Source: a virus (lineage: Duplodnaviria; Caudoviricetes). From it: a stretch of DNA of 59,545 bases. Both the position numbers and the translations under genes were made by a program. Positions within the stretch are counted from its first letter, which is position 1. Each line of letters begins with the position of its first letter. The stretch spans positions 1 through 59,545 of the IMG/VR virus record IMGVR_UViG_3300045612_000175. One strand, 5' to 3'. Under the pieces are notes generated by a model that worked only from the letters and a program-made list of their open reading frames with translations, searched no databases and had not been told where the DNA came from. Shown here piece by piece: positions 8,270 through 56,283 of this stretch.

Positions 8270-8315
8270 AAAGAGAAATGCCCCCGAGCATCTGAGATGC
8301 CGGGGGCTTTCTTTT
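8270..8315. terminator. Bidirectional intrinsic terminator
   Basis: aagagaaat GCCCCCG-a-GCATC tga GATGC-CGGGGGC tttctttt, between convergent operons. Confidence 0.8.
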
Positions 8316-9042: not shown

Positions 9043-9048
9043 ATTATA
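9043..9048 (-). promoter_or_regulatory. -10 box for leaderless thyX transcript
   Basis: TATAAT exactly 6 nt before the ATG; no SD. Confidence 0.55.
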
Positions 9049-9655
9049 CAGAGAGGGAGTGCCTCATCGCACGCTTGGCCTTCTCTAGCATGCTCTTGAT
9101 GATCTGCCAGTCAAGGCCAAGGTCTTCGGCGATCTCTTGATAGCTGTAGCCATCTGCACGCATGATGAGGACTTGGCGAAGGTCTGGGCTTAATGCAGAA
9201 AGTGCACGTGTCATTTTTTCAGACATCGGCTCGGGGCCATCAATAAGCGTCGCTGGGTCCATGGCAGCGGTCATGCTGCCAGACATAGATGGAATGCCGA
9301 CAGACGACACGTAGTCGTCGATGCTGTCCATATCTTCTGAGAGTGAGCGCTCTTCTAGGCTGTATATTTTTATGTATCTGTTTCTGCGACCTTCATCTCG
9401 AACAAGGTTGCTTGCAATTGTGTAGAGCCATGCATTAAAATAAAAAGTGCCGTCTCTGATTCCGGGCAAGCTAGCAATTGCTCTTGCCATTGTTTGCTGC
9501 ACTATCGCTTCAGTAGCACTTCTGTCTCCGGTAAGCTTGAATACGTGCCTCATAAGGCCGGGCCTGAGGCGCTCGGAAAGGACACCAAACGCAGCCATGT
9601 CTCCAAGGCGTATTCTTTCAAGAAGTGCTTTCGTTTCTTCAGAAGAACTAGTCAT
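9044..9655 (-). CDS. ECF-type RNA polymerase sigma factor
   Basis: GDMAAF, FNAWLYTIASN (region 2); LSPDLRQVLIMRADGYSYQEIAEDLG (region 4 HTH). Confidence 0.9.
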   Translation of the reverse strand: MTSSSEETKALLERIRLGDMAAFGVLSERLRPGLMRHVFKLTGDRSATEAIVQQTMARAIASLPGIRDGTFYFNAWLYTIASNLVRDEGRRNRYIKIYSLEERSLSEDMDSIDDYVSSVGIPSMSGSMTAAMDPATLIDGPEPMSEKMTRALSALSPDLRQVLIMRADGYSYQEIAEDLGLDWQIIKSMLEKAKRAMRHSLSV

Positions 9656-38476: not shown

Positions 38477-38696
38477 CAAGAGGCTCATCGAAGTGATCGC
38501 GGCCAAGCTCAAGGACCAAGAGGAGTTGCTTACTGAGCGGTTCTACATCGTGGGCGAGGGCAATGGGGCCGAGATCGAGGCGGCACTCAAGGCCGAGATC
38601 AAGCGTGAGACTGGACGCGAGGCCACGCACGTGGCATGGAGTCCTGTACGGCGAGTGACTGAAGAGGAGGCACGGCGCTATGATGCTGGCAGATGA
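38469..38696 (+). CDS. Hypothetical protein
   Basis: Packed ORF. Confidence 0.55.
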   Translation: MADKRLIEVIAAKLKDQEELLTERFYIVGEGNGAEIEAALKAEIKRETGREATHVAWSPVRRVTEEEARRYDAGR

Positions 38697-39180
38697 GGCG
38701 ATCAGGTCCGCGTGGAAGGCAGGGCGACTGAAGATCGAGCCATGGGATGAGGCATGCTTGCAGCCAGCATCGTATGAGCTGAGGCTCGCTGGGAGCCTTG
38801 TGTACTGGGATGAGGCAGGGGCGAGCCGCGTCACGAACTTTGAGAACTACACACTCTTGCCGGGACGCTTCGTGCTGACAAGTACGACCGCACGCATTGG
38901 GCTGCCATATGACGTGGCCGCACGGGTCGAAGGCAAGAGTAGCCTCGGCAGGCAGGGCCTCTTGATCCATGCCACGGCAGGCTGGATTGACCCCGGCTTC
39001 GAGGGCGAGATCACCCTTGAGTTCAAGCACCTAGGCAATGAGCCGATTGGCCTGAAGGCAGGCATGCGTGTGGCCCAGCTCTGTTTCTTTCAGACGACAG
39101 GGTCGGCACGGCCGTATGGCCATGAGGCACTGGGCAGTAAGTATCAAGGGCAGGTCGGGCCGACAAAGGCTCGGGGCTAG
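38680..39180 (+). CDS. dcd: dCTP deaminase
   Basis: LQPASYELRL, EGKSSLGRQGL.IH.TAGWIDPGFEGEITLE, KYQGQ. Confidence 0.92.
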   Translation: MMLADEAIRSAWKAGRLKIEPWDEACLQPASYELRLAGSLVYWDEAGASRVTNFENYTLLPGRFVLTSTTARIGLPYDVAARVEGKSSLGRQGLLIHATAGWIDPGFEGEITLEFKHLGNEPIGLKAGMRVAQLCFFQTTGSARPYGHEALGSKYQGQVGPTKARG

Positions 39181-39200
39181 GCGCATGTGCATGGGGGCCA

Positions 39201-39275
39201 TGGAGCCGAGAGTGGGAGTCGAACCCACGACTGGCGGTTTACAGGACCGCTGCTCTGCCACTGAGCTATCTCGGC
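39201..39275 (-). tRNA. tRNA-Thr(UGU), CCA encoded, C33
   Basis: Acceptor GCCGAGA/TCTCGGC; anticodon arm GCGGT-CCTGTAA-ACCGC; T loop TTCGACT. Confidence 0.88.
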
Positions 39276-39276
39276 G

Positions 39277-39348
39277 TGGCCCCCGTGGGACTCGAACCCA
39301 CAGCCCAAGGATTAAAAGTCCCTTGCTCTACCGTTGAGCTAGGGGGCC
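39277..39348 (-). tRNA. tRNA-Lys(UUU), no encoded CCA
   Basis: GGCCCCC/GGGGGCC; AGGGA-CTTTTAA-TCCTT. TGgTATCCT extended -10 lies 8 nt upstream. Confidence 0.92.
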
Positions 39349-39364
39349 GCATGAGGAGGATACC

Positions 39365-39931
39365 ATGGCATACTCGGGTGATGACGTGACCAAGCCAAGC
39401 TGGCATGCGAGTGTGCGGGTCGGTGGCTTCGACGACGAGTGGCTGAAGTGGGAGGGCGTGGATCGCGCACACATCTTGCACGAGATCGTGAACATCAACG
39501 ATGCGCCCTATGAGGTGCCAGTCGTAGACAAGAACTACGTGAATTGGTGGCCAAAGGGCTGGAGGCTGGGGCTTGTACGGCCCTCGTACTTGTGGACGCT
39601 CATTGCCATGAACGCACACAAGGGGCTGACTGTCAGGGCCGTTGATGATGACCTGACTGTCGTCACGAGGGCGACTGATCCGCTCCTTGTGTGGGATGCA
39701 GTGGCGTCATTTGCGGCGACTGTTGATGAGACCCTTGTGATCTACAGCAAGGGGCCTAAGCCCGTGAAAATCAGGCTCACCCCTGATCGCGATGTCATGG
39801 CCACGTGCTACGAGCTAGATTCCGTGACTGGTGCAGATGGCGACCCGCTCGATGGCGATGGCGAATGGCCCGAGGGGGTGGAGTGCGCGAAGCTCGCATG
39901 GGACTTGGCGTGGAAGAGGCGTGAGCTATGA
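39365..39931 (+). CDS. Hypothetical protein between the tRNA pairs
   Basis: GAGGAGG SD, 188 aa. Confidence 0.65.
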   Translation: MAYSGDDVTKPSWHASVRVGGFDDEWLKWEGVDRAHILHEIVNINDAPYEVPVVDKNYVNWWPKGWRLGLVRPSYLWTLIAMNAHKGLTVRAVDDDLTVVTRATDPLLVWDAVASFAATVDETLVIYSKGPKPVKIRLTPDRDVMATCYELDSVTGADGDPLDGDGEWPEGVECAKLAWDLAWKRREL

Positions 39932-39966
39932 GGACATAAGTCCGTAAGGACGTGAGGCGGCGCGCG

Positions 39967-40042
39967 TGGTGCCTCGGGCGCGGGTCGAACGCGCGACCGT
40001 CCGCTTAGAAGGCGGATGCTCTGTCCACTGAGCTACCGAGAC
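39967..40042 (-). tRNA. tRNA-Arg(UCU)
   Basis: GTCTCGG/CCGAGGC-ACCA; TCCGC-CTTCTAA-GCGGA. Confidence 0.92.
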
Positions 40043-40049
40043 GCGCCCA

Positions 40050-40125
40050 TGGTAGGCCCGGCGGGAATTGAACCCGCGGCCACTGACTTATAAGGTCAGT
40101 GCTCTCACCACTGAGCTACGGGCCG
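40050..40125 (-). tRNA. tRNA-Ile(UAU), C1.U72 mismatch
   Basis: CGGCCCG/CGGGCCT-ACCA; CTGAC-CTTATAA-GTCAG. Confidence 0.9.
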
Positions 40126-40150
40126 CCACCCTAGGCAAGGAGAAGCATAC

Positions 40151-40567
40151 ATGATCGCGATGACGATTGGCCTGCGCGTGTTCATGGTCGTGCGGGCATT
40201 CGGGCCGGGCCACTATGAGCTGAGCATGGCGACAATGGCAGCATTGGTGGCCGACATCAGTCCGAAGCTGGCGGCCGAGGAGGTTGACCCCGTCGAGATT
40301 CTTGAGGCACTCGCATGGCTCGACAGTACTGATGAGGCCATGGCCAAGGAGACTGGGTCGGCACGGACGTTTGTGTTTCTCAGCATGAAGCAGATCGGTG
40401 ATGGCACCTCTGTTTCTTGGCATGAAGCAGATCGCAAGTGGCATGGGTCTGACTACTCTAGGGTCGTGGCAGTCTTCGAGCGAGAGAACCCAAGCCTAGG
40501 AAGCCGCTTCATGGCGGATCTCTTTGGGTCTGAGTACCCTACAGTCGTTGGCGAGACGGTGTTGTAG
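40151..40567 (+). CDS. Hypothetical protein
   Basis: AAGGAG SD. Confidence 0.6.
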   Translation: MIAMTIGLRVFMVVRAFGPGHYELSMATMAALVADISPKLAAEEVDPVEILEALAWLDSTDEAMAKETGSARTFVFLSMKQIGDGTSVSWHEADRKWHGSDYSRVVAVFERENPSLGSRFMADLFGSEYPTVVGETVL

Positions 40568-40797
40568 GCTACTCGGCCCAGATTGTAGGCTACTTGGAGG
40601 CTACTTCTGCATGAATTGCATGGCACATAGAAGCAAGCCTGATCTGGAACTGTAGGGTAGTAGCCTACTTTTAGAAGTGCTGGTATATTCGTGTGGGTGA
40701 AAAGAGTTTGACCCCCGTATATAGTACGGGGGGCGAAGAGGATTGGGCCTCGTGCAATGGGTCGCCTAAAATAGGAAAGTTGCCGAGTAGCCTACAA
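40562..40797. repeat. Iteron-like direct and inverted repeats; candidate replication origin
   Basis: Perfect 16-bp inverted repeat TTGTAGGCTACTCGGC (40562..40577 / 40782..40797), more AGGCTACT copies at 40583, 40598 and 40659 (inverted), and a hairpin near 40712-40733. Confidence 0.6.
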
Positions 40798-40813
40798 GCC
40801 AAGGAGAACTGCA

Positions 40814-41134
40814 TTGAACCGTACCGACATGCTTGACAAGGACAGCGAGGCAGGGGAGCACCTGCTTGAGACTCTTGCTCGGATCGAGGCGGGGCTACTT
40901 GAAAGTAACCGTGTGTACACCAAGCTCCTGTCGCGAGTGGCAGTCATCAAGGTGACAGTCGATGACATTGAGGCGAAAGTCAAGAAGCACGACGCCGAGC
41001 TTGTAGAGACAGGCAAGCTGTGCGACGAGCTGATCGGCGGCCTGCGCGATGTCATGGAGGCGACCCTCAACATGCAGGGCAAGAGTCTCAGTGACGCCGA
41101 GGGACTTGCGCCCGACGAAGAAGGCATGCTATAG
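40814..41134 (+). CDS. Coiled-coil hypothetical protein
   Basis: AAGGAG SD, TTG start. Confidence 0.55.
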   Translation: MNRTDMLDKDSEAGEHLLETLARIEAGLLESNRVYTKLLSRVAVIKVTVDDIEAKVKKHDAELVETGKLCDELIGGLRDVMEATLNMQGKSLSDAEGLAPDEEGML

Positions 41135-41135
41135 T
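41106..41135 (+). promoter_or_regulatory. Sigma70-type promoter with extended -10
   Basis: TTGCGC-18-TATAGT, preceded by TGc. Confidence 0.55.
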
Positions 41136-41219
41136 CTGCTGTCGCGGACTGGCGATGGTGTCACCAGCCTGTTGCTGGTGGGATCGGCAAAGACCCAACA
41201 ATTGAATAGCGCGCTCTTG

Positions 41220-41255
41220 GGCCAGCCATTTCCCCCGATGGCTGGTCTTTTTTTT
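41220..41255 (+). terminator. Intrinsic terminator upstream of the giant gene
   Basis: GGCCAGCCAT-loop-ATGGCTGGTC-T8. Confidence 0.85.
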
Positions 41256-41299
41256 ATGTCCTCCGTTTCTACAAGTAAGGCTTATTGCGGAGGACACCA

Positions 41300-44200
41300 A
41301 TGACGTTTACATCACGAGGCTTCGGTATCAGAACCAATGCTGACGCACAGAAGGCGCGGCTTGATGAGCTTGCAAGGAGAGTAAACCTAGGGAAGCCTGA
41401 AGAGCAGGCCCCTACTGGCCCCACGGCCGCGGACTACAATGCAGTCGCAGGCCTTGTGCCTGAGGCATTCCCTGCTGGCTTCGAGCCACTGCCCGAGCGT
41501 CCAGTCGATCCAGAGCAGGCAGCCATTGATGCCGCAAGAGCCAGAGCATCGGCGTACCTGAGCGCGCCAGACAACGCTGCGATGCAGACCACAGACATTG
41601 GTGGCACGCAAGTCAGGTCATTGAGGCCGGGCATGACATGGAACTTCACGCCCGAAGAGGCAGCCTCGCGTATCGACACGTTCGAGTCCGCAATCAATGC
41701 AGGCGTGAACCTCACACCTGCCGAGCGCGAGGAGTACATGGCGGCACAGGCCACCCCCGGCGTGAACATTCGCAAGGGTGGCTGGGACACGGCAGGCAGG
41801 AACCTCTTTGTCGGCGCAACGGGAGGCGTGGCTGCCCCCATTGGCGGTGCCATGCGCTTCATTGGCGAGAATGCTGGCGTGCCGGGCATGGCAGAGAGCG
41901 GGGCAGCCATCGAGGAAAGCGCGGCTGGGCAACAGGCCCGCTTCAATCCGCCGACAAAGGAGCAGCTCGACAAGGCGACGGGCGTGCCTGAGCCGAAGCC
42001 AGAGTGGGGGGCGAACAGCCTGTTCCAAGTCAACACATGGACGGACGGGCGCATGCTTGACCCGAAGTGGTGGGAGGCCCTCGGCGCACAGAACTGGGTC
42101 AAGACGACAGGCATGCAGGGGCTTGGCTCATTTGCTGGAACTGCGCTTGTTACCGCGCCCCTTTCCATGGGGGCGAGCGCACTGCTTGAAGCGCCCATGC
42201 TTGTCGTTGGTGCGCGCTTTGGACTGAAGCCCGGTGTCATTCGAGGCAGCCTTGAGATTGCCGACAGGCTTGGCCTTGGTGGGGGCGATGTCGTTGACGC
42301 ACTCACAGAAGCAGCAACTGCATATTCAGATGCAAGACGTGAAGGCAAGTCTATAGACGAAGCAAACAGAATTGCCGGTCAAGTCAGTGCCATGAATGTG
42401 GCGACGAATGTTGCGCTTGGCTCTGCCGGTGAAGTTGCAGCCAAGCTCAAGGGTGCAGGCATGGCGGCACGGAAGCTCAACAATTTGCTGAGACGTAGCC
42501 CCGTGCCTGTTGAGACGCAGCTCGCGACCGCAGAAAGAATGGCATCAGAAGGACTCATTCAAAAAGTCATCCTTGATAAGGTCAAGTCTGCAATTATTGC
42601 AGGTGCAAGAGAGGGACTTCAAGAGGCGCAGCAAGGCAACATTCAGGACACGGCAAAGGACGACACGCCATGGGATGTCATGCGTGCGTACACGAGCGGC
42701 AAGTACACGGACGACATGCTCGCTGGCGCATTGCTTGGTGGGGGCAGCCGCTTTGTCGGATCAATGCGGACGATGGCAAGGCCAAGCGGTGCGCTCGGCA
42801 TCATGTCGCAGCCACAGAAGGCACAGATTGAATCTGTGATTGGCGACAATCCTGTATTCAAAAACCTCCCTGAAGAAAGCGCATCAAGACTTGAGGATCT
42901 GAAGAGTCGAGTATCTTCAGGACAAGTGTCTTTTGATGATGGAGTACGAGAGTTAGTTGACATTGCATTTGAATTGCCATCTGAACATTTTGATGCAATC
43001 AGACCAAAACTTGACATGCTTGAGGAGAGCGCTGCCGAAAGTGCGACTCAAGAAACAGGAGGTGGTGGGGGCGCACCTCCGACACCGCCACCTACAAAGA
43101 CGGGCGGAACACCAGTAGATCCAGAAGAGGAGCGCATCAGAAGGCTCATGGATCTAGATGATCCACTCAGGCCGGGGTCAAAACTTATAGATAGATATAG
43201 AAGTCTTGCAAGTCAGGCTCGTCAAGGTGTGCTTACAGCAGATCAACTAAGAAATGATTTGTTTGATCGTATTCAAGATGATAGCAATCTTGATGATGAA
43301 GGAGTTAGCGCTCTTACAGATGCATTGCAAAGTCTTGATATATCTGCTCCACAAAGTGAAGCAGTAGCAAATGCAGAAAGAATGTACGCTGCAAGAGATA
43401 GGGAAACAGAGGAAGTAATCACACCGGAACCTCCAACAAAAAGCTCGTCAAGCATAGCACCTAGTGCAGCTCAAACACCTAGTACTGCTAGGTTTACGAA
43501 GCCAGAACAGACTATTCCTACAGAGCAAGCGGATGCAGAAGTTCGCAAGGCAGTAGACGAATTCCTTGCACAGAATCCTGACATTAAAATATCTAGAGAT
43601 ATTATATACGATCAAAAGTATAAAGATTTTGTGCAAGAATTAACTAATAAATATAATTATACAAGTATATATGCACCTCCTGAGTATAATGAGTTTGCTC
43701 CATGGAAAGTTCCACAAGACTCTGCACGTATGGCTATATATAGTCAGCTAATTCAAGGAAGGCGCGCACAGCAAGCAGGATCACAGCAAGCGGCTACACG
43801 TATTATAACTACTCCGCAAGCTAGACAGAGGCTTGCAAATCTCGGAATGACAAATGAACAACTTGTACGCTATGTTCCTACTCCAAGCGGAAATAATGGA
43901 TCATATACTCTAGCCGACGTAACAAAAGCAGAGAGTCTAATGAATGCGGAGGGTTCCGTCGCGGGAGAGCCTGTTGCCGAACAGCCTGTTGCCAAGCCAC
44001 CGGCCGCCGAGCAGCTCGTCACCGAGCCACCGGCCGCCGAGCCACCGGCCGCCGAGCAGCCCGTCACCGAGCAGCCCGTCGCCGAGCGACCAGCCGCCCA
44101 ACGAGTCGTTAGGTTTGAAAATCCTTTTATTCAGAAAGCTTTTGAAGCTGCAAAAGAAAATGGACTTGTATCTGATGAAGATATCCTTGCGCTTTCTCCA

Positions 44201-47200
44201 ACAGGACAAGGAGGAGCTTATAAGGCGGCAGAACTAGACGCAGCTCTGAAGAAAAATGGACAGGCAGTAAAGAGTGGAAGATTATATTATGGAGATCCAG
44301 ATGCTATAGTAAAGCTTAAGGCTATTGCAAAGCCAGCCGCTGTTGCTGAGGCTCCTGCGACCGCCGCCGAGGAAGTCAAACCGCCAGCCGAACAGTCGCC
44401 TGCTGCCGAGCCTCCTGCGCCTCCTGCTGCCGAGCCTCCTGCGCCTCCTGCTCCTACCGTGCCTGCCGAAGATGGTCGTAGAAGAACACCAAGTGGAAGA
44501 ATCATAAGACCAGAAGCAGAAACATATGCTCGCACAGAGGGAGTGTCACTTCTTGAACTTGATCCATTTATTATCGGAACTGGAAGAAATGGAATTATAA
44601 GAAGAAGAGATGTTGTAGATGCTATTGAAGCTTATAAGACTGACAGACAAACAAGAGCCGCGAATCAAGAAAAGTTAAGCAAAATTCCGGGCATAGCAGA
44701 CGAAGAACTAGAAACATCGGGACAGACATTGGATTCGCCGGGAATAAGACAGGCAGTATTAAGTTCAATCTTAGAAAAGATAGCTAAGAATGATCCAAAT
44801 GATCCACCATATCAAGTTGCATTTTATAAAGGTCAAACAAGAAATAGAAATGGGATTGGTCTTGGCCCTAAATATGTTCCAGTTTTCATCGCAAAAGTTA
44901 GTAATACAAGTGTGGAAATAATAGAAATTCGCGCAGGTGCAAATCCAAAACAAACAATAACTCTTCCAAAAACATTTTTTAAAGACATATTTGTACCTAC
45001 AAATGAGCAACTACAAAGAATTCGTGCTGAAAATAAGATTAGAGCGAATAAAGGTCAAGTTTTATCTGACGAAAAAATAAATAATATAGAAAAACTTTTA
45101 AATGAGTTGAAAGAAAATTCTCTTTTATATAGTGATGACAATCAGATGATGGCAAGGTTTACAGAAGCAGAGCCATCAAACCCACAGCCAAGACCCGGAA
45201 AAGAAAATGTAGACGAAACTAAACAAGAAGTTGACTCTTCTGGAAAAGAAATTGGCTTTGGTCGATTTACATATGAAGATGAAAGTGGAAATATAACAAC
45301 ATCTAGATACTCAACAATAGATCAAGATTCTTGGAAGATAGTGGATGAGCTTGCAAGATGGTACGCTGCACGAGAGGCAGGAAGGCCTGAGCTTGCAATC
45401 GCATATGCAAAAACTATCCTTGGTCCAAGAGGAGAACTTGCAAGATACGTCGGGCAGCTCATTAGAATGTCAGATGTTATAGAAAAAATAAATCCAAAAT
45501 TTACTGCTTTCAGACCAGATTTTATACACTTTCGATTTAATGGTCAGCTAATACGCAACGCTTTGGCAATGAACATCGCAGACGTAAAAGGAATGATAGA
45601 AGATCTGGGATTAGATTCAGAAAAAAAGCAAGAAGTTCTTAAGCAATTTGAATTAGGATTTAGAGCAGCATCAAAAGAAGACAGTGAAGGTAAGCCTGAG
45701 CGTGTAAATCCAGAAGGAATAAGATCTAGGTATTGGACGACACAACTACAGTCTTTGTATAACAATGGAGTGGCGTGGTCAAGAACAGAATTTGGACCTA
45801 ACTCAAAATATGAAGTGCCTGAACTAATAGGAAGAAAGACAAGCGAAGGCACCGAAGGCACCGCCGAAACAAAATCATATGCTTCTGGTGGACTTACTTT
45901 TGCCGCAGAAGGAGGAAAAGACTACTGGGACAGAGAAGTAAGCAAGCACATAGATGAGGCAAGATTTAAGGAACTTGCTGGTGAACCTGCTGCAAAAAAT
46001 GGATATAAGTTTAACCAGATTCAAGATGTAGTCAAAAAGATTCAAGCAGAAGGCACTACTGTAAGACCATACGGTGACATACAAAAAGAAATAGCTGCCG
46101 AAAAGAAACCAGCCGCAGGTACTGAGACAGGCGCTCAGCCTACAGAGACGACAGGCGGGCCTCAGAGCGAACAGCCACCTGCTCGTCGTGCGCAAGTGCG
46201 TGCATCAAATGCACATCCAAAAAGAGAGATCCCAGATTCCGCGCGACAGACAAAGCAGCTCACAAAGCCAAAGAGCGGAAACGATATTGCTCCTATTGGC
46301 ATAATCAAGGGAGTGAATTCCATACTCAATGCAGGAGACATTGAGGGCGCAATGGTATACATGAGACTATTGTTTGGATCACTTTCAAACTTAAAATATC
46401 CTGATATTAAAGTTGATGGAAAGCCAGTCACATCTGCTGGATCGGTGTCAGATACTGACGTGGGAATAGGAAGTAATATGGCTCTTGCTCTTTGGGCAAA
46501 CATGACAGGAACTGGAGCAGAAGCAAACAAAACATTAATTAATAATTTCTTAGAAAGAATAAAGAAAGAATCTACAGGCGTTCCCGAGTACGCACGCATA
46601 AATAAAATTATTAATCAGACGATTAGTAGCCTGAGGGCGCTTACGTCTGGAAGTCTTTCAAGTCAGGATATTGCTAACGAGGTAATGCAAAAACAATATG
46701 GAGTAAATCCAGACAATCTTGCAACTCAAGAAAGCGCAAAAGCATTTGCAATAGCAAGAGTGAAAAAGGCTATTGCCGAACAACTGAATCATGCATTGCG
46801 TGCATCACTCACAGATAGACTCTTTGGTTCTAAGAAGGCTCAATCAGACAACTTGTGGAATGCAAGGCATAGATCGCAGGCAGCAGCCGTGGATCAAGCA
46901 GTGCAGGAGACAGTCGAAGCACCAGCCTCGGCAACCACTGAGGCAGGCGGAGCTGCGCCTACAGAAGCCAAAGCACCAGCGTCAGCAGCTCCGAGCGGCC
47001 AGACTACAGATGTGGCCCCGAGTGTTTCAGGCGGGGTTACTTTTGCTGCACCGGGAACCCAAGCGTACTGGGACAGAGAGGTAAGCAAGCACATAGATGA
47101 GGCAAGATTTAAGGAACTTGCTGGTGAGCCTGCTTACAAAAATGGATATACTTTCACTCAGCTTAAAGATGTAGTTGAAAAAATTAGATCGGAAGGCAAG

Positions 47201-50200
47201 GTAGTAAGAGAATCATCAGAAGTACAAAAAGAAATAGCTGCTGAAAAAAGAGCAGCAAAAGCAGCGGGAGCCACTGCAACAGGCAGCGCTGCACCAGCAG
47301 AAACACCAGCCACTGCACCAGCCACTGCACCAGCCGAAGCACCAGCCGAAGCACCAGCCGAAGCACCAGCCGAAGCACCAAAAGAACTTGATGCAAGTGG
47401 CATACAAAATATACCAGATGAAGTTCAAAGAAATATAAATGTTTATAATGGATTGTTAAAATTATTAACAGATAATAATCCTTTAATTGTATCAGCAGCA
47501 AAACAAGGAATGAACGACGCTCTTATAGCTATAAATTCAGGTGGATATACTGTTGATTTTGCTACAGGGAAAATTATAGAATCTGCCTCAAGCTTGGGAG
47601 CTATGAGAGATGTATTAAATACTATTACTGGTACTGGTACTGGTACTGGTACTGGTACTGGTACTGGTACTGGTACTGGTACTGGTACTGGTACTGGTAC
47701 TGGTACTGGTACTGGTACTGGTACTGGTACTGGTACTGGTACTGGTACTGGTACTCAAGCACAAGCGCCAGTAATTAATAAATCTAATCTAATGTCATCA
47801 GTAAGAAATCTTGTAACTACAGGCCAATCAAATGATATTATAAATCACTTGGGTGGAATGAATCTGATTGATGCTGGAAGAACTATTAAAGCAGCACTTT
47901 CACGCACCTCTAAAAAATCACCAGAAGGAGTGCGTGACAGACAATTTATTATTGATAACATAGATAAAATTTTTACTGATCCAGCAAAGGCTCAAGTTGT
48001 TAGAAATATGGTGGAGGGCAAAACAACTACAGTTACTTTACCTACCACATCAGTCAATCCACCAGCACCACCAGTCAATCCACCAGCACCACCAGTCAAT
48101 CCTCCCGCACCACCAGTCAATCCTCCCGCACCTCCAGTCAATCCTCCCGCACCACCAGTCAATCCTCCCGCACCACCAGTCAATCCTCCCGCACCACCCG
48201 CACCACCCGCACCTCCAGTCAATCCACCCGCACCTCAGCCTGTTCCTCCGACGCCACCACCAGCAGGTCCCACTCAAACTTGGTGGGAAACACTAGAGGC
48301 ATGGCGCTATGCAAACGCATTGTCAAATGTTTTCCAGCTTGCTACAGAAGGGCTAAATGCAACAGTACGAGTAGCTGAGCTTTTCACACTTAATCCAATA
48401 GAAGGCGCGGTTCAAGGCGTGTTCAAGAAATTTGGAGCACAGGGTGAGCAGACCGCATCAGTAGGCGCATCGCTTGCTGGCGCCACAGGAATACTAGATG
48501 GAATTGCCAACGGCGCAGTAAATGGATTCAAAGCATTTACTGATCCAAGCGCAGTACTTCGTGGTCCAAATACAGACATCAAGCTTCTCACTCAAAGCGA
48601 GATTGCAAAAAATAATAGGCTGGCAAAATATGGACTTACTGGCCTAGAATTAATTGGCACAAGACCAAGACTTGCACTCGACATGCTTGCTCAAGGTATT
48701 GCAAGAAGCGTTGCGCTATCAACAAGAGCAGCGCTTGATGCACAGAATTCAGTGGGAGACATTTCATCTCAGGCTGGACAAGCCAAGATGAAGGAGTCGA
48801 AGTTTATTCTTGGGCAGGCGATGGCATGGCCATCTGTCATGAAAGACAGTGAACAGATCATGTCAGAAGCTGAGTATATTAAGATGCTCGGCAATGTTTC
48901 AAGCCAGCCAAATCTTTTGAATGATATTCGCGCAGCACAATACAATGGATCTCAGGCCTTTGCTTCAGATGCTGACATATACAATGCAGCAAAGAAGGCA
49001 TACGAAATTGAAGACGAGGCAAGAGGAATATCAAACCAAGGAACAAGGCAGCCGAGACTCTTTGGAAGGCTGTTCGCCGGAAATCCTGTGGCAAAAAATC
49101 TTGTGCTGTTCACGAATTGGCTTGCACGAGAATCATACCGAGGCCTGTCATACACTCCGGGCGTTGGCGCTGGCCTCATGTTGTATGATGTACAAACAGG
49201 CAAATACAAAGACATTGAAGGTGGAGCAAGCAAATGGATTGGAACACCTACTGACCCAAGGACCGAGAGGCTGTCGAAGCGTGTAGCCATGCAGATCATG
49301 GGGAGCATGGTTCTTGCAGGAGGCTTTGCGCTCAGAGCAATGGGCCGTATGAATGGCGATGGCCCGGAGGAGCCAGAAGAAAGAAGTGCGTGGCTTGCTG
49401 AAGGCAACATTCCATATGCACTTACTTGGGACAATCCAGACGGCACCAAGGCACAGTTCAAGCCGTCCGGTGTGCTTGGCGCGCTCATGTATCCGCTTGT
49501 TGCAGGAGCCATCGTTCACGACACCATCATGGGGTCAGAGTATCAAAGCCCATCAAAGGTGCGAGACGTACTTGACAAAGTTAGAAGACTATCTGTTCAG
49601 TACGCAGAGTGGATGTATGATAATAGCACTCTAAGAAACTATAATGAAATCATGAATGCGCTCCAAGCTAATAACTATGGAGAGCTAATGAACAGAATCA
49701 TTGCGAATCAAGTTCTCTCGTATGTACCAGCGTCTGGCCTGATGCGAGGAATCAATGCAGTGTCAGACAAGTACATGAGAAATCCAGACGATGTTCTCGA
49801 TTATATTTCAAACTCGCTGCCGACTGACAAGGATGCAATTGAGAAGAACCAGCAAGGAGGAAGACCGCAACTAAACATGGCAGTCAGGCCAAAGCGAGAT
49901 GAGTTTGGAAGGCCAGTACAAAATCAGTACTACGCAGAGGACACTGCGGGCAAAGTGGCAGGCCTGTTTAGGAGACAGTTCGTTTCCACTACAAGAGAGG
50001 GAAGTCAGAAAGACCAGCTCGGAAGGCCGACGTACCAATACGCTGGAGCAAAGACGAAGGCAGAATCTGTACGCATCGGAGGAGCAGTCAACGCTGTGGA
50101 GAAATATCTTAGGAATCCTCAGCTTGAGCGAGAACCTACCGCAGAGGAATATAGAATCGCAGCCAGATATTACGGCGGCAAAAATGTCCTCTGGCAGGAT

Positions 50201-50260
50201 GCACGGCAGCGTGGTGTCGAGCAAGAAAAGCTTGATCGAAAGATGTATGAGAGGAAATAA
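41300..50260 (+). CDS. Giant internal virion / DNA-ejection protein (~2986 aa)
   Basis: EGLQEAQQ...GALLGG membrane-associated motif; C-terminal [20 protein letters not shown] motif like T7-type internal virion protein D homologues; low-complexity linkers. GGAGG SD before ATG 41300. Confidence 0.7.
45884..46110 (+). repeat. Internal domain duplication (second copy ~47025..47250)
   Basis: [27 protein letters not shown] occurs twice, with a near-identical nucleotide core. Confidence 0.9.
47627..47755 (+). repeat. Perfect (ACTGGT) x21.5 microsatellite encoding a (Thr-Gly)n tract
   Basis: Read directly from the sequence. Confidence 0.95.
48052..48235 (+). repeat. 21-bp repeat encoding (VNPPAPP)n
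   Basis: Read directly from the sequence. Confidence 0.9.
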
Positions 50261-50262
50261 AA

Positions 50263-52710
50263 ATGGCATCAGGAATTAACACAGTACAGCTAGATAGATC
50301 AGTTGTTCAGAATGCCGCTGAAATTCTCTCATTGCTTTCTGGTAAAAACACGATATATCCATCGAGGATTATTACTGAGTCAAATACTGTACCGCCCGGT
50401 GGATCTAGAGTTGATTACTTTTCGTCTAAGTATTTTACAGACAATCCAGAAAATAATGCAAAAATTAATAATGAAAGAAATATGCTGTTCATTCCAGCAT
50501 GGAAAACAATAGTTGGAATATACGAATCAGAAATTGCAAGAGAGAGCACAAGCTGGTATTCTTCTCAAGAGAATAAAGACAAAGAAAGGGCGCAAAGCCT
50601 GCAAAGAATAAATAATCAACTTATATACATACGCAATAATATAATGCAAAATAATGAATATGAACGAAGAGAAAGTTCTGATTCATCAACTCCTCTTTAC
50701 ACAATTAAAGATATTGATTCAAAAACAGATATGGAAAAATTTACCATATTTAACAATGGTGTAAAGCAGTTTTCAGCAGAAAATCCAGAGATGATGCCGG
50801 GATACAAGGCGTCTCCAACAGCACAGCCAAGTCCGACAGGGGTGGTAAGTCCAGCAGCGACGCCCGTGCCTCCACCTCTTGAGCCTTCTATTAATGCCGC
50901 GCCCGGATCAGCAACGGTGGCACCAGCCACATCAGTCGCTGCTGGCGGGACACCTGCTGGATTTTCAAAGGGGGCCAGCGCCACTACAGAGTCAAACGAT
51001 GATGAAAAATATATAGATAGTTTGGTATCTTCTTATAATAATAAGATGCCTGATTTGAAAAAAATAAATCCAGTTACTGCTGAAGACATTTCTAATGAAG
51101 TTAGTCAACTCAGAATTCCTTATAATTCAGCAAAAATAAAATTTGATAACGCATCAAAATCAGTAGCTAAATATGAAGCGGCACCCGGTGGAGCTGTAGG
51201 GGACAACTATGAAGCGGCAGTAAAAATTCAAGATGCTGCTCGCGAAAAGCTTGCTGAGTCAGGTCAAAAATATGCCGCGGCTCTTGTCAAAATAGACACA
51301 GCACTTAGAAATAATGGAATCGTACCATCATATGATAAAGTAACTGTTGATGGAACATTTTTTACTGTAACGAAAAATGCATATACTGGAAAAGCAATTT
51401 CCATGTCTCCAGTAAATGTTGCTCTAACTCCAGATCAGGCTCAGGCAGCAAAAGACACGGCAGTAAGGCAAGGAATTGTAAGTGAAGATACGGCTGTAAA
51501 TACAGCGCCTGCACCTGAGGCATCGAGCGTGTCGGTGCCACCTGCCGTAGCAAGAGTAGGCTCGGCACCAGCACCTGCATCAGCACCTGCACCTTATACT
51601 CCATCCCCGACAGGCATGGTCATGCCAGCTCCTGCAATGGCTGGGGCACCGAGTGTGCCAGCCCCAGTCACGAGTGCGACTGGCGGGGTATCAGGTGTCG
51701 TTGGCCTTCGAGGCACGATGACACAATCAGGTGGGTCGCCGGGCAAGCCGAACATGGTGTGGGACGGGACATGGGGGCCGGGCGGCGTAAAGAACATGGT
51801 GCAGCAAGGCACGACAGGCGGGTCAGCCGGAAGCGTGCAGATGCATCCGCTTAAGAGCCAATACGATCCAAAGACAGGAAATCTCTTTGTCATGAATGAA
51901 ATGACAGGAGAGTTCAATGTAATGAACACTGGATTAGGGAATGTATCTGCTGAAATTAAAGATGTTCATTACTATCCAGATGGATCTGTTTCTGCTGTAT
52001 ATACAGATGGATCAATGAAGGAACTAAAGACCGCAGATCCAAGTGTGCTGGCAAGACAGGCCGCAAAGGATGAGGCCGCACAGCAAAACGATCTTATGCA
52101 GGCGGAGGTCTACGCACAAAATGCAAGGAAGTCGCGATTCGAGAATGCAGTGAAAGACCTCGTCGCAAGTGGCAAGTACACTCCAGAGCAAGGGGCAATC
52201 TTGCTCGGAGACTTCAGTGCATATTTTAACTATCAACAAAATGCAAGAAAAGCCTACGAGGATGCAAGGGCCACGCGCATTGCAGAAAAAGAACGTGCAG
52301 TAGCGCAGGCACAGAAATTGCAGGGTGGCTATAACCTGAGCCGCATGCTCTTTGGTGGGAATAATCCACAGAATATGGCGGCAATCAATCAAATGGTGGA
52401 GGCGCTACCCGGAGACAAGAGCGAGTCTGTGGGGGCAAGACAATTTAGAAGCATGTGGGGAACACAAGATGGTGTTGCTAATCCACTAGACTACAAGGAT
52501 CCGGGAGCATGGACGCAGCCTGAATATACTCCTCCAGACAAGTCAATCATTGAAGAATGGATGAAACAAAATCCAAGCATATTCGACAAACTTGGAAGCA
52601 CTAATGCTGCGCAGCCGCAGCCAGTCGCGCCTCAGCCTGTGCCTGCTGTAATCACAAGGCCAGAGGGGTTCGGTCTGTACCCAGAAGCACTCGGACGTTT
52701 CGGTCAGTAG
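50263..52710 (+). CDS. Putative internal virion / ejection protein (815 aa)
   Basis: Helical and low-complexity, AT-rich 5' half, coupled to the giant gene. Confidence 0.55.
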   Translation: MASGINTVQLDRSVVQNAAEILSLLSGKNTIYPSRIITESNTVPPGGSRVDYFSSKYFTDNPENNAKINNERNMLFIPAWKTIVGIYESEIARESTSWYSSQENKDKERAQSLQRINNQLIYIRNNIMQNNEYERRESSDSSTPLYTIKDIDSKTDMEKFTIFNNGVKQFSAENPEMMPGYKASPTAQPSPTGVVSPAATPVPPPLEPSINAAPGSATVAPATSVAAGGTPAGFSKGASATTESNDDEKYIDSLVSSYNNKMPDLKKINPVTAEDISNEVSQLRIPYNSAKIKFDNASKSVAKYEAAPGGAVGDNYEAAVKIQDAAREKLAESGQKYAAALVKIDTALRNNGIVPSYDKVTVDGTFFTVTKNAYTGKAISMSPVNVALTPDQAQAAKDTAVRQGIVSEDTAVNTAPAPEASSVSVPPAVARVGSAPAPASAPAPYTPSPTGMVMPAPAMAGAPSVPAPVTSATGGVSGVVGLRGTMTQSGGSPGKPNMVWDGTWGPGGVKNMVQQGTTGGSAGSVQMHPLKSQYDPKTGNLFVMNEMTGEFNVMNTGLGNVSAEIKDVHYYPDGSVSAVYTDGSMKELKTADPSVLARQAAKDEAAQQNDLMQAEVYAQNARKSRFENAVKDLVASGKYTPEQGAILLGDFSAYFNYQQNARKAYEDARATRIAEKERAVAQAQKLQGGYNLSRMLFGGNNPQNMAAINQMVEALPGDKSESVGARQFRSMWGTQDGVANPLDYKDPGAWTQPEYTPPDKSIIEEWMKQNPSIFDKLGSTNAAQPQPVAPQPVPAVITRPEGFGLYPEALGRFGQ

Positions 52711-52746
52711 AAATATATTTTAGAAAATAATTTAGGGAGCAATTCA

Positions 52747-54441
52747 ATGCCTCAGGATAAATCAAACAAGGACGACGCAGTAGCAATATCTCCATACAGG
52801 CAATACAGTGACGGTTCTGCAAAAACAGTAACTGTCCCAGCAGGAGACCAGAAGACTGGAACTGTTACTTACACTACAGGAGGCACAAAGAAAGAAGCCG
52901 AAAAGTCAGGAGGCCAAGGCGGCACAGCAGACTCGCCCAATACCGCAGCGAATACAGCCGCGAGAAACGCAGCTCTAGGGAATCCGCCATCCGGTGGCGG
53001 TGATAAAGCAACTTCCGCTGCTGCTGCCCCCGCTGCTGCTGCTGCCCCATCACACATCATGCAACTTAGCGGCTTGGCATACTTGAGTAGCCCAGAAGAA
53101 TTTAATGCATATGCAAATACACTTGATTCATGGAGCAGATATCTCAGTATTGTAAACAGTCAGAGCCAATATGTCATGACTGTAGACAAGATCGGCCCAG
53201 ATGGAATACCTACATTCAAGCAGATGCTTGGTCCAGACAATAAGCCAATTCCTCAGAGCCAGTACGCACTCAATAAGCAGCAAATTGATAGACTAAAAAA
53301 TCAAGACATAATTGATATGGCGAATACAAGTGGTAAAATTAAAGATCCAGAGACTGGCAAATGGATTCAGACTCCAGACGCAATTGTAAAAATAGCACAA
53401 AGCGATCAATACAAGCAACAGGCAGAACTTACAAAGCAGGAGGCTCTTAAGACTATTGCTGAGACCGCATATATTTCTGGAGCACAGACTGATCTGACAA
53501 GAAATCAATCAAATCTTGTTACTGCACAGACAACATACACAAATGAGCAGCAAAAGGAGCTTGCACGACGCTACGAACTCGACAGGCAAAACGCACTGGC
53601 ACAGGCAGTGGCCGACCCAAGGCGCAGTGTCGAGGCTGCCATGATGATGCAGCTCTACGGAGCCAATCAAGGCGGCATGCCAGTCGGCACAAGCGGCTAC
53701 TCGGCGCAAGGCATGGCACAGCAGGCCCCTCAGTACACGCAGCAGCCTCCTCAATACATGCCAGCGCAGGGGTTTGCTGGCGGCACACAGGCTCAAGTCG
53801 CGCAGCCAGTCAATAGCGGGCCGCCTGCACAGGCACCGGCATGGGCGTGGGCTGGCGGTCAAAATCAGGGCGAAATGGTTCGCGCTGCTGTCATGCCTGA
53901 AGGCCAAGACGGCATGTATCGTGCTGCTGTACTTCCAGACAACTATTACTCGATGCGGGAACAATTATCTAGACAAGAGGACCTCGTTCGACAAAATGAA
54001 GCCAATCAAATGCGTGGTGCTGTGCCTGAAGGCATGCAAGCTCCAAGCGCATGGCCATCGCCAACAGGACAGGTCTCAAGTACTGATGCCGCAAATGGAG
54101 TCGGCGGCTATAGTGCGGGGCAGCTCGCGCAGAATAGGCAAAACACCGCATATGTTGTAAATCCAAATTTGGCTGCGGCTTTGCAGGGCCAGTATGTGCC
54201 GGGTGCAGGCAACAAGAGTGGCAGCTACGGTCAAGTCACAACCATTGCGGGTGCTGCACCACGAGGAGGCAACTACGGCAAGATCAACCCAGTCTCGTAC
54301 AGAAACATGGACGAGGACACTCGCGCAAGATATGGCAGCCTAGCTCTGGCCAATCAAGGCATGAGCGAGCAGGATCTTGCAAAGAGGCAGCGAGTTGCAT
54401 TGCCGGGCGCAAGTGCAAGTGGTGGTGGCACGAGGCTCTAG
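52747..54441 (+). CDS. Putative internal virion / ejection (pilot-like) protein (564 aa)
   Basis: Gln/Ala/Gly-rich with coiled-coil QQAELTKQEALKTIAET. Confidence 0.55.
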   Translation: MPQDKSNKDDAVAISPYRQYSDGSAKTVTVPAGDQKTGTVTYTTGGTKKEAEKSGGQGGTADSPNTAANTAARNAALGNPPSGGGDKATSAAAAPAAAAAPSHIMQLSGLAYLSSPEEFNAYANTLDSWSRYLSIVNSQSQYVMTVDKIGPDGIPTFKQMLGPDNKPIPQSQYALNKQQIDRLKNQDIIDMANTSGKIKDPETGKWIQTPDAIVKIAQSDQYKQQAELTKQEALKTIAETAYISGAQTDLTRNQSNLVTAQTTYTNEQQKELARRYELDRQNALAQAVADPRRSVEAAMMMQLYGANQGGMPVGTSGYSAQGMAQQAPQYTQQPPQYMPAQGFAGGTQAQVAQPVNSGPPAQAPAWAWAGGQNQGEMVRAAVMPEGQDGMYRAAVLPDNYYSMREQLSRQEDLVRQNEANQMRGAVPEGMQAPSAWPSPTGQVSSTDAANGVGGYSAGQLAQNRQNTAYVVNPNLAAALQGQYVPGAGNKSGSYGQVTTIAGAAPRGGNYGKINPVSYRNMDEDTRARYGSLALANQGMSEQDLAKRQRVALPGASASGGGTRL

Positions 54442-54477
54442 CGTTTCTACATCTGAATCACTCATAAGAGGAGAGAC

Positions 54478-55311
54478 ATGAACGACGAAATTGCGGCCCC
54501 AGAAATTAGCACCGACGATCTTCCGATTGCAGCCTATGCATCGGAGGGGCTTGAAGACTCCCGCGTCTGGTCTCCAGACGACGAGGCCATAGAGCTTGTC
54601 GATGCACCTGCACGCGAAGAACCAAAGATTGACGCCGACACAATCAGGGCGCAGGCCATTGAAGAATATAAGGCGGGGCAGCAGCTTGAGATTGAGAGGC
54701 TGCGTGCGGAAGCACAGTTGAGACTTCAGCAGGAAGCACTTGCCGCAGAAGAAGAAGAAGAGTTTGATCTTATTGAGCGTGCAGATTCTGGAGACTTGGA
54801 GGCGCAAGAGGCATTCTATCTCAAGAATTTTGAACGTGCAAAAGAGAGGCTCACGCAAAAGAAGACGCAGGCCGCACTTGAGCCTGAGCGCGCCGCAGCT
54901 CGCAACGAAATCAGGCGACAGCTTTGGGAAGAATACTCCAAGTCATTTGGTGTTGAGCCAGACGACAAGGATGTTCTTAGCATCCCCGCAGATCAAGGGA
55001 TGCGTGGCATCAACGCTGCACTCATTATGCGTACACAAGATGACGCAATTCTTGATGCAGCCAGAAAGAATCCTGCAATGCAGAAGTGGATTAAGGAGGA
55101 AGTAGCAAAAGCAACACAGGCCGCTGGAGCAAGAGCAATGGCAAGAGCACTTGGAGCAGAGGAAGCACCAAGAGCAGACGCAGCAGCTCAGACGGGTGGC
55201 AGAACAATTACAAGCGATGAGCTTGATAGGGCACTCATGCAGAATCCAGATGATAGCGAACTCTATAAGCTTTGGGTAAAGCGAGAGAGAGCGGCTGGTA
55301 GATACTGGTAA
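54478..55311 (+). CDS. Capsid scaffolding protein
   Basis: Acidic helical protein directly upstream of the capsid gene. Confidence 0.65.
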   Translation: MNDEIAAPEISTDDLPIAAYASEGLEDSRVWSPDDEAIELVDAPAREEPKIDADTIRAQAIEEYKAGQQLEIERLRAEAQLRLQQEALAAEEEEEFDLIERADSGDLEAQEAFYLKNFERAKERLTQKKTQAALEPERAAARNEIRRQLWEEYSKSFGVEPDDKDVLSIPADQGMRGINAALIMRTQDDAILDAARKNPAMQKWIKEEVAKATQAAGARAMARALGAEEAPRADAAAQTGGRTITSDELDRALMQNPDDSELYKLWVKRERAAGRYW

Positions 55312-55338: not shown

Positions 55339-56283
55339 ATGGTTGCACCGATTTCCGCAGCCGAGCTGGTGCAGATGGAGCCGAAACTCATCTTGCCCGC
55401 TCGCTTTACGCTGCAAGCTAAGACTCTGGCGACTCAGCTCTTTCACAAGGAGAGCTTGCCTGACAAGAAGGGTCGAGTCCTGAATCAGCCGAAGTATGGC
55501 GAGTTTGAGGCCTTTGACGCGACGGAAGGCATTGAGGTCGATAACCCGCAGAAGCTCAGCACCTCGAACTGGGTGGTTGAGCCGACTGAGATTGTGGCGC
55601 AGTTCTTGCTTACCGACGTGGCTGCCCGTGTCGGCGGCGAGAATCACCTTGCGAATGCGGGCCGTATCCTTGGGGATGCGATGGCCAAGAAGGTGGACAA
55701 GAAGGGCCTTTCGATTTTCAAGGATGGCGACAGCAAGGGGAACCTCTTTGGTGTCACGCACAGCCTCGGTACCGTGGGTGGCACGGGTAGCCCGACGACG
55801 ACCATCACCGTGCCGCATGTGAATGCTGCGGTGGCGCGACTCGAAGGCAATGCCGAGCCGACGCCCAAGCCGATCCGCATGATCTTGCGTGCCGAGCAGA
55901 TGCGCAAGCTCCTGAATGCTGTTGCGCCTGTGTCTGGCACGAACGCCATCTACGGTGGCATCAGCGAAGAGGTCTTGAAGCAGTACTTGAAGCACGACTT
56001 TAGGCTCTTCGGCCTTGAGGGTGGCTTCATCACTCCGAACCTTGATCGCTTCAGCACGACAAGCACGCCGGTCATTGGCGATGCGAACACCTATGCGGTC
56101 GGGGCAGTATTCAGCCCTGAGAGCATCTGGTATGTTCCGGTTGATGCCATGACGGTCGAGAAGGAGCGGCGCATGAAGGCTCGCTCGTGGCTCTATCAGG
56201 CGAGCCATACCTTTGGCTTTGGCGTCTATCAGGAGAAGTGGGGCGTCAAGATGTCGTTTGAGGCCGCAGATCCGACCTCGTAA
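55339..56283 (+). CDS. Major capsid protein (HK97-fold, 314 aa)
   Basis: QPKYG...ATEG E-loop, LTD.A, GRILGDAMAKKVD spine helix, VEKER...FGFGVYQEKWGV; strong SD and biased codons. Confidence 0.82.
   Translation: MVAPISAAELVQMEPKLILPARFTLQAKTLATQLFHKESLPDKKGRVLNQPKYGEFEAFDATEGIEVDNPQKLSTSNWVVEPTEIVAQFLLTDVAARVGGENHLANAGRILGDAMAKKVDKKGLSIFKDGDSKGNLFGVTHSLGTVGGTGSPTTTITVPHVNAAVARLEGNAEPTPKPIRMILRAEQMRKLLNAVAPVSGTNAIYGGISEEVLKQYLKHDFRLFGLEGGFITPNLDRFSTTSTPVIGDANTYAVGAVFSPESIWYVPVDAMTVEKERRMKARSWLYQASHTFGFGVYQEKWGVKMSFEAADPTS

Follow-up and report, generated by a model that had tools for sequence, protein, structure and literature searches.

Four antisense tRNA genes beside the AT-rich late block of a GC-rich phage probably supplement its codon supply

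Phage tRNA genes that compensate for differences in codon usage have their classic cases in the tRNA cluster of phage T4 and in the cyanophages of GC-rich Synechococcus. The concept of codon compensation is restated in two papers (PMC10264068; PMC13015707; both cited from excerpts). Besides, phage tRNAs whose altered anticodon loops allow them to escape nucleases have been described (PMC10264068), and the Lys and Thr tRNAs of phage T5, when co-expressed, were reported to rescue T7 (PMC12409363, in excerpt). The present analysis deals with a cassette of four tRNA genes, for Thr(UGU), Lys(UUU), Arg(UCU) and Ile(UAU), in the IMG/VR virus record IMGVR_UViG_3300045612_000175, a single assembly of 59,545 bp with 56% GC, which was analysed as a whole and is referred to below as the window. 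These tRNAs would read ACA, AAA, AGA and AUA, i.e. the complete series of codons with A in first and third position (ANA codons), and they probably are functional elongator tRNAs providing an ordinary codon supplementation. Like the codon-compensating tRNAs of other phages, they correspond to A-ending codons used above a GC-richer background, the most strongly in late structural genes. Unlike in the classic cases, the skew of the window is internal to one genome, a single AT-rich late block contrasting with the rest of a GC-rich phage, and the tRNAs are only four, encoded on the strand that none of their neighbours uses.

Exactly four tRNA genes are detected in the whole genome by ARAGORN and by Rfam, the latter both at the gathering threshold and at E-values up to 1, so that the list given by the first-pass annotation, made from the letters of the sequence only, holds without addition. 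No fifth tRNA was found in the 59,545 bp, the other sub-threshold Rfam matches corresponding to tRNA antisense matches and a (TG)n repeat. The four genes score 63.2-72.3 bits against a gathering threshold of 29 bits for RF00005, and their minimum-free-energy folds are a cloverleaf for the Thr and Arg tRNAs and a near-cloverleaf for the Lys and Ile tRNAs, the acceptor pair C1.U72 of tRNA-Ile being flagged as non-canonical in the Rfam alignment. A gap of one nucleotide separates the discriminator base of tRNA-Lys from G1 of tRNA-Thr. The anticodon loops of the Ile, Arg and Lys tRNAs read C-U-NNN-A-A, i.e. seven bases with U33 present, and U36-A37-A38 is found in all four tRNAs. Since 36-UAA-38 is described as the strict determinant of N6-threonylcarbamoyladenosine (t6A) in the excerpted part of PMC13276492, all four carry the sequence determinant for t6A at position 37, as had been proposed for this set of ANN-reading tRNAs. 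In addition, a contig from an independent lake-water run of 2018 (X17) spans 39047-40110 with two differences and no gaps, and the cassette is unchanged across the 2018 run and the runs of 2025, which indicates that it is stable in lake-water populations; among the sequencing runs compared, no contig joined across the cassette points to a tRNA-less variant.

The codon usage of the late block, defined as the four open reading frames (ORFs) starting at 41285, 50263, 52747 and 54478 (41285-55311; 4643 codons; G+C content at third codon positions, GC3, of 0.36-0.46), was compared with that of the other 54 called ORFs (12647 codons). ANA codons reach 92.4 per 1000 in the late block versus 32.5 in the other genes (2.84-fold), in agreement with the richness already noticed at first reading, and the ATAAGAAGAAGA run singled out at 44597-44608 does lie in frame in the giant ORF of the block. 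However, the other codons ending in A (NNA codons) also rise, from 114.7 to 247.5 per 1000 (2.16-fold), and ANA codons exceed the general bias towards A in third position only modestly (pooled odds ratio 1.32, Fisher p=5e-4; p=0.09 for ANA codons against the rest when the 14 NNA codons are ranked in a per-family Mann-Whitney test). Codon by codon, the shift is large for AAA (26.3 in the late block versus 6.2 per 1000 elsewhere, x4.2), AGA (24.1 versus 6.2, x3.9) and ATA (15.5 versus 3.9, x4.0). When NNA codons are ranked by synonymous log-odds, TTA comes first (2.38), followed by AGA (2.11), AAA (1.66), ATA (1.61) and GAA (1.45), so that the proposed enrichment stands for the three codons at ranks 2-4 but not for ACA, which is 11th of 14 with 0.72. 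In the same line, the late block, with 27% of all codons, holds 59-61% of the genome's AAA, AGA and ATA but 38% of its ACA. The cognate codons of all four tRNAs are thus enriched in the late block compared to the other phage genes, although weakly in the case of ACA; three of the four tRNAs fit the most skewed abundant codons, Thr-UGU being unremarkable in this respect. As a consequence, the earlier suggestion that the cassette serves AT-rich late genes in a GC-rich background is retained for AGA, AAA and AUA and not for ACA. UUA is the sole NNA codon shifted more than AGA, AAA and AUA, yet it amounts to 31 copies genome-wide, which fits the absence of Leu-UAA. ACA, for its part, is the most used ANA codon overall, with 328 copies.

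The first-pass annotation had also seen in the exact ANA series a special minimal module, a view that is not supported by comparison with the anticodons carried by other phages. A background was drawn from 80 DnaE-matched IMG/VR loci, 54 distinct ones being scanned (50 in the anticodon survey plus five, one of them shared) and the 26 others, mostly from short contigs, lying outside the scans. Among the 50 surveyed records, 21 bear tRNAs, with 69 Rfam matches, 61 of which were typed by ARAGORN. Arg-UCU is present in 15 records, Leu-UAA in 13, Ile-UAU in 8, Lys-UUU in 6, Thr-UGU and Ala-UGC in 3 each, and all others in 1-2 each, so that the anticodons of the window are among the commonest. Under these weights, the ANA set has a probability of 0.012 and takes rank 16 of the 495 possible four-sets, the commonest set reaching 0.079; once Leu-UAA is excluded, its probability is 0.051 and it ties for the first place. 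The set is thus roughly the one expected of a four-tRNA phage with these codon needs. Three of the background phages (G011, G018 and G019) each carry exactly Arg-UCU, Ile-UAU, Lys-UUU and Leu-UAA. Like the window, these environmental DnaE-type phages have four tRNAs, three of the anticodons being identical; unlike them, the window has Thr-UGU in place of Leu-UAA and GC-rich tRNAs, those phages being AT-rich throughout. More generally, the GC content of the window tRNAs (0.61-0.67) exceeds that of all 54 distinct background tRNAs (maximum 0.60, mean 0.48), which argues against their import along with AT-rich DNA; compared with background tRNAs of the same anticodon, they are identical at no more than 50-60 of 73-79 positions. 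The literature search yielded no usable table of phage anticodon base rates, although the supplements of PMC10264068 and PMC13015707 may hold some.

Taken together, these data point to a model in which the four tRNAs would top up the host supply for AGA, AAA, AUA and ACA, codons that are heavily used in the late block and sparingly elsewhere. AGA, AAA and AUA are the A-ending codons of split codon boxes and ACA is the most used of the ANA codons, and the ANA series itself would be the by-product of a general order of acquisition running from Arg-UCU through Leu-UAA, Ile-UAU and Lys-UUU to Thr-UGU. A second cause would be the near absence of UUA codons from this phage, which would render Leu-UAA dispensable. 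The model further relies on three inferences, namely a GC-rich host with few of these tRNAs, expression of the phage tRNAs, and a late translation limited by tRNA supply.

A related phage, G003 (an IMG/VR record of 46.5 kb found through the DnaE scan, with a DnaE 60% identical and a synteny that starts in the tail genes and extends as far as the giant ORF), offers a point of comparison. In this genome, the deaminase gene is followed by the GTAGGCTACT repeat cluster, two small ORFs, a hairpin with a TCCCCC loop, a tRNA-Arg(UCU) and the giant ORF, the tRNA lying on the gene strand, 43 nt upstream of the latter. The G003 tRNA-Arg resembles the window in its anticodon and in its neighbourhood, between the deaminase gene and an AT-rich giant ORF; unlike in the window, it is single, lies on the gene strand and comes after a terminator-like hairpin. 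The two tRNA-Arg genes are identical at 54 of 77 positions, compared with 46-60 of 75-81 among tRNAs of different specificity. The G003 gene, being no closer than tRNAs of other specificity, is not an orthologue and was independently acquired, so that AGA decoding would have been gained twice beside the giant ORF in related lineages. In the G003 giant ORF fragment (2,548 codons, GC3 0.38), AAA (39.2 versus 9.3 per 1000) and AGA (22.4 versus 9.3) are the two most shifted NNA codons, ATA and ACA being 7th and 12th of 14. The expectation that the tRNAs co-occur with the AT-rich segment in relatives is thereby borne out for tRNA-Arg(UCU) but not, in the 46.5 kb of this record, for the Lys, Ile and Thr tRNAs, and the full four-tRNA set would not be tied to the AT-rich giant ORF.

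Several observations weigh against codon supplementation and have to be set beside the data that support it. The scarcity of these tRNAs in the host is assumed, the phage's own GC-rich genes serving as a proxy for host usage. ACA rises only from 16.2 to 26.5 per 1000 (x1.6, rank 11 of 14), and GAA, CAA, CCA, GGA and TCA are equally or more used in the late block without any phage tRNA to read them. In G003, an equal or stronger enrichment in AAA is reached with no Lys, Ile or Thr tRNA in the 46.5 kb of a record that ends short, about 10-13 kb of late genes lying outside it. Besides, the gene calls are self-trained calls made in this analysis, and the background anticodon counts derive from AT-rich records (GC 0.32-0.40) that are possibly interrelated, the counts not being independent. 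The tRNAs run antisense to every neighbouring gene and a sigma-70-like promoter was not found on the minus strand of 38400-41400, so that their expression is presumed; since the phage encodes its own sigma factor, this failure is no evidence of absence, and that factor may explain why such promoters are missing at the tRNAs. Similarly, two RNA-type runs (X18 and X19) gave short low-depth phage contigs and foreign tRNA pieces, which are uninformative on tRNA transcription. Finally, tRNA-Thr has C33 rather than the near-universal U33 in the Rfam alignment. The read depths at position 39244 fit the presence of C33 in contigs of runs X16 and X17 at the depth of the phage (about 7x), whereas the foreign tRNA contigs, of high depth, have U33. 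The deviation concerns only one gene of the four and gives no reason to doubt its identity as a tRNA; excerpts of PMC13276492 describe bacterial t6A formation as independent of U33, whose role is to enforce the U-turn.

An unlikely explanation, although a serious competitor, is that the tRNAs, and above all the Lys-UUU/Thr-UGU pair, replace host tRNAs cut by defence nucleases and are themselves poor substrates. Since their anticodons are of the form U-N-U, decoders of ANA codons are the most uridine-rich targets, and the two abutting genes correspond to prime targets of PARIS AriB (PMC12409363, in excerpt) and of LshCas13a, for which the accessible part of PMC11042736 gives a preference for Lys-UUU, Glu-UUC, Gln-UUG and Thr-UGU. 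The AriB site in E. coli is U36-AAUC|A41, and the resistant tRNA-Lys of T5 reads U36-AAACC-41 (PMC12409363); at these positions, the tRNA-Thr of the window reads UAAACC, the same hexamer as the resistant T5 tRNA, and its tRNA-Lys reads UAAUCC versus UAAUCA in E. coli, i.e. with A41 changed to C. In sequence, the window thus resembles the T5/PARIS type in combining Lys-UUU with Thr-UGU and in the C41 of its tRNA-Lys, but differs from it in lacking Asn-GUU, the third AriB target, which is absent from the genome, and in a tRNA-Lys that keeps U39. The enrichment in ACA is, moreover, too weak for codon demand alone to explain Thr-UGU, and the C33 of this tRNA contrasts with the U33 of the three Thr-UGU genes of the background. 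When GTDB genomes were scanned for a CCUGUAA loop preceded by a tRNA D-arm, 70 loci (L143-L212) were obtained, 59 of them with true Thr-UGU genes bearing C33; 17 are dense arrays of at least 8 tRNAs and many others belong to DPANN archaea. C33 also occurs in 32 of the 314 other tRNAs of these loci, far above the chromosomal expectation, and its recurrence in such arrays indicates that this non-canonical feature is not unique to the phage; these loci have no proteins in common with the phage and give no clue to its host. An IMG/VR pattern scan for tRNA-Lys directly followed by a tRNA-Thr with C33 returned one match, dismissed as chance as there is no tRNA at that place. Nevertheless, these are substitutions relative to the E. 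coli site, which the host tRNAs may or may not share, and stem positions 39-41 vary widely among tRNAs in any case. The nuclease alternative put forward by the first-pass annotation is plausible for Lys-UUU and Thr-UGU, but no nuclease specific for Arg-UCU or Ile-UAU was met in the literature consulted, and G003 carries Arg-UCU only. Neither a tRNA repair gene nor a known anti-defence gene was found among the ORFs scanned, which are part of all ORFs, and replacement of cut tRNAs does not predict the late-block skew of AGA, AAA and AUA, which codon supplementation does accommodate.

Two further explanations, both very unlikely in our opinion, concern the timing and the origin of the cassette. 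In a hypothesis summarised in PMC13015707 (cited from excerpts), the tRNAs would sustain late translation, whatever the codon bias, after the host DNA has been degraded or its tRNA turned over. The location of the cassette where early and late genes meet, next to a cluster of repeats that G003 has conserved, is in keeping with such a timing, as is the G003 tRNA-Arg, whose location on the same strand, 5' of the giant ORF and 3' of the hairpin, makes co-transcription possible. However, four tRNAs would be insufficient for translation in general, the choice of anticodons tracks the codon skew, and a nuclease acting on the DNA of the host did not appear in the ORFs that were scanned. Alternatively, the cassette could have been inserted by recombination and persist as a neutral passenger without benefit. 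G003 lacks the segment 39181-40567, in which both tRNA pairs and two ORFans lie, and the antisense orientation is odd. In addition, the 3' end of the deaminase gene (39076-39118) has an imperfect copy of about 45 nt inside ORF138 (40351-40418; core 20/23 identical), a short DNA duplicate with no similarity between the deaminase and the ORF138 protein, which may be an insertion scar. On the other hand, all four tRNAs are intact and high-scoring, they did not change between the 2018 and 2025 runs, their anticodons match the most skewed codons, and tRNA-Arg(UCU) was gained independently in G003, all of which speaks against passengers.

The surroundings of the cassette suggest how its expression could be arranged. 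All called ORFs between 25,983 and 59,191 are on the plus strand, so that the four minus-strand tRNAs are antisense to every neighbour. The order is dCTP deaminase, Thr/Lys tRNAs, ORF188, Arg/Ile tRNAs, ORF138, repeat cluster, ORF106, hairpin and giant ORF (Table 1), the cassette lying about 1.2 kb upstream of the AT-rich late block. Distances of 16 and 25 nt separate the 5' ends of tRNA-Lys and tRNA-Ile from the ATG codons of ORF188 (39365) and ORF138 (40151), respectively, so that the layout recognised at first pass, i.e. two antisense pairs, each head-to-head with a plus-strand ORF, about 1 kb 5' of the AT-rich genes, is correct. G003 has a cluster of the GTAGGCTACT motif at the corresponding position (locus L090, 8332-8502), and the cluster of the window, at the early/late boundary, may be a candidate regulatory region, i.e. 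an operator, a promoter or an origin. G003 also has a look-alike of the terminator-like hairpin, with the same TCCCCC loop (L090, 7806-7779), preceding its tRNA-Arg and giant ORF, and the presence of such a hairpin before the giant ORF in both genomes suggests a control of late genes by read-through or antitermination. The sigma factor gene adjoins a thymidylate synthase gene (8314-9036, minus strand) in a small minus-strand island.

Were a leftward promoter present in the GTAGGCTACT cluster, it would yield a transcript with all four tRNAs, a deduction from the layout only. A more elaborate and very unlikely extension of this idea would make the cassette a late-timed antisense module, in which the GTAGGCTACT cluster would act in both directions and be read by the sigma factor, the U-N-U tRNAs being present in nuclease-hardened forms. 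Rightwards, the region would drive the late genes; leftwards, the tRNA transcript would run antisense through ORF138 and ORF188 towards the deaminase gene, thereby helping early shut-off. The hardened forms would be the tRNA-Thr with C33 together with A39/C41 and the tRNA-Lys with C41, and the U-N-U anticodons would be the class most exposed to uridine-directed nucleases such as PARIS AriB and Cas13a.

Regarding the neighbouring genes, ORF188 has no Pfam, PHROG, PADLOC or Atlas match and no homologue in G003, and no usable match in these same four collections was obtained for ORF138, which contains an internal tandem-like repeat of 33 nt (40374-40406 versus 40411-40443). In the late block, the giant ORF, ORF815, ORF564 and ORF277 stand directly 5' of the capsid gene and on the same strand. 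The giant ORF is a GC3 mosaic, with 0.47-0.76 over its first ~500 amino acids (aa), 0.11-0.43 from aa ~500 to ~2500, and 0.45-0.49 at its C-terminus. Its middle part contains proline/alanine-rich and (Thr-Gly)n linkers; a long (Thr-Gly)n run lies at ~47585-47760, with PAAEPPA and PPAPP linkers close by, and gives spurious sub-threshold miRNA matches in Rfam. An internal motif duplication is also visible at aa ~1535-1560 and ~1915-1945. No Pfam or PHROG family was found for the giant ORF, and the comparison with PDB sequences returned low-complexity matches only, so that its earlier designation as an ejection gene is unconfirmed and amounts to a guess. ORF815, ORF564 and ORF277 likewise have no Pfam or PHROG family. 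The idea that ORF564 encodes the portal was a guess and was dropped, its single-sequence AlphaFold model (predicted local distance difference test, pLDDT, of 43) being too poor for searching. For homologues of the major capsid protein (MCP), PF25209 is listed.

Elsewhere in the genome, a glycine-rich domain (PF21722, 1e-9) is present in the ORF at 54-623, which lies at the start of a probable tail module. The large terminase consists of two overlapping ORFs in different frames, at 20540-21394 (Terminase_6N ATPase) and 21376-22212 (Terminase_6C nuclease). In the relatives G002 and G003, the terminase is split likewise and the ORFs overlap to a similar extent, at 62-76% identity, so that the split is not a sequencing error; either a programmed frameshift or a terminase truly made of two parts may account for it.

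Table 1. Positions of the tRNA genes, of the candidate regulatory elements and of the genes discussed in the text (window coordinates; RBS, ribosome-binding site)
Feature	Position	Strand	Remarks
Phage RNA polymerase sigma factor	9044..9655	-	phrog_1740, 2.3e-20; kept in G002 and G003
dCTP deaminase-like gene	38680..39180	+	Left neighbour of the cassette; Pfam DCD, 3e-34; G003 homologue 51% identity
tRNA-Thr(UGU)	39201-39275	-	ARAGORN; Rfam 67.4 bits; loop CCUGUAA; 36-41 = UAAACC; CCA encoded
tRNA-Lys(UUU)	39276-39348	-	ARAGORN, Rfam; 36-41 = UAAUCC; CCA not encoded
ORF188	39365..39931	+	ORFan with a tRNA pair on each side; strong RBS; GC frame pattern like that of coding DNA
tRNA-Arg(UCU)	39967-40042	-	ARAGORN, Rfam, fold; CCA encoded
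tRNA-Ile(UAU)	40050-40125	-	ARAGORN, Rfam, fold; CCA encoded; C1.U72 mismatch
ORF138	40151..40567	+	ORFan; gene call; no G003 homologue
GTAGGCTACT repeat cluster	40533..40796		Both orientations; all 7 genome matches with at most 1 mismatch fall here
ORF106	40814..41134	+	Unassigned; gene call; no family matches
Intrinsic-terminator-like hairpin	41219..41248	+	12 pairs, loop TCCCCC, T8; just 5' of the giant ORF
Giant ORF	41285..50260	+	2991 aa; ANA codons 100 per 1000; weak homology in relatives
ORF815	50263..52710	+	GC3 0.36; ANA codons 96 per 1000
ORF564	52747..54441	+	GC3 0.45; unassigned
ORF277	54478..55311	+	Directly 5' of the capsid gene; GC3 0.46; 40-56% identical in relatives
Major capsid protein	55339..56283	+	phrog_267, 5e-5; GC3 0.74; 2 ANA codons

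Relatives of the phage are few and mostly distant. Cultured phages share about 37% identity in DnaE and 26% in the MCP, and single-protein IMG/VR scans with the giant ORF N-terminus, the MCP and ORF188 returned no relative. An MCP profile recovered one distant IMG/VR locus and none in GTDB genomes; 19 MCP relatives with 25-90% identity were found in a large protein collection, the phage's own protein being left out, and a metagenome scan at the Joint Genome Institute (JGI) gave six contigs with MCP relatives, the compared stretches of which lie outside the tRNA locus. In the JGI relatives, the giant ORF is 25-27% and ORF815 27-31% identical where the MCP reaches 67-89%, and the homology of the giant ORF in relatives including G003 is weak, at 25-30%. 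The GC content upstream of the MCP varies from one lineage to another (0.59-0.65 throughout in L004, 0.44-0.53 upstream of the MCP in L003, 0.49-0.60 in L005, which belongs to a collinear contig of 57.9 kb, and 0.43-0.56 in L007), so that the reduced GC content of the late block represents a lineage-specific, mosaic trait. Such hypervariable genes upstream of the capsid gene (41285-54441) are typical of host-interaction modules exchanged between phages.

If supplementation of codon supply is the correct reading, this phage would illustrate codon supply cleanly inside a single genome, which is GC-rich except for one late block that is AT-rich and evolves fast, and a tRNA-Arg(UCU) would have been placed beside this block independently in each of two related lineages. 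The case is also a warning that a pattern as neat as A in first and third position throughout should not be read as design. Finally, with its antisense tRNAs, its tRNA-Thr bearing C33 and a Lys/Thr pair that matches two unrelated nucleases, the locus would make, given a host, a compact system in which codon supply and nuclease evasion could be tested against each other.

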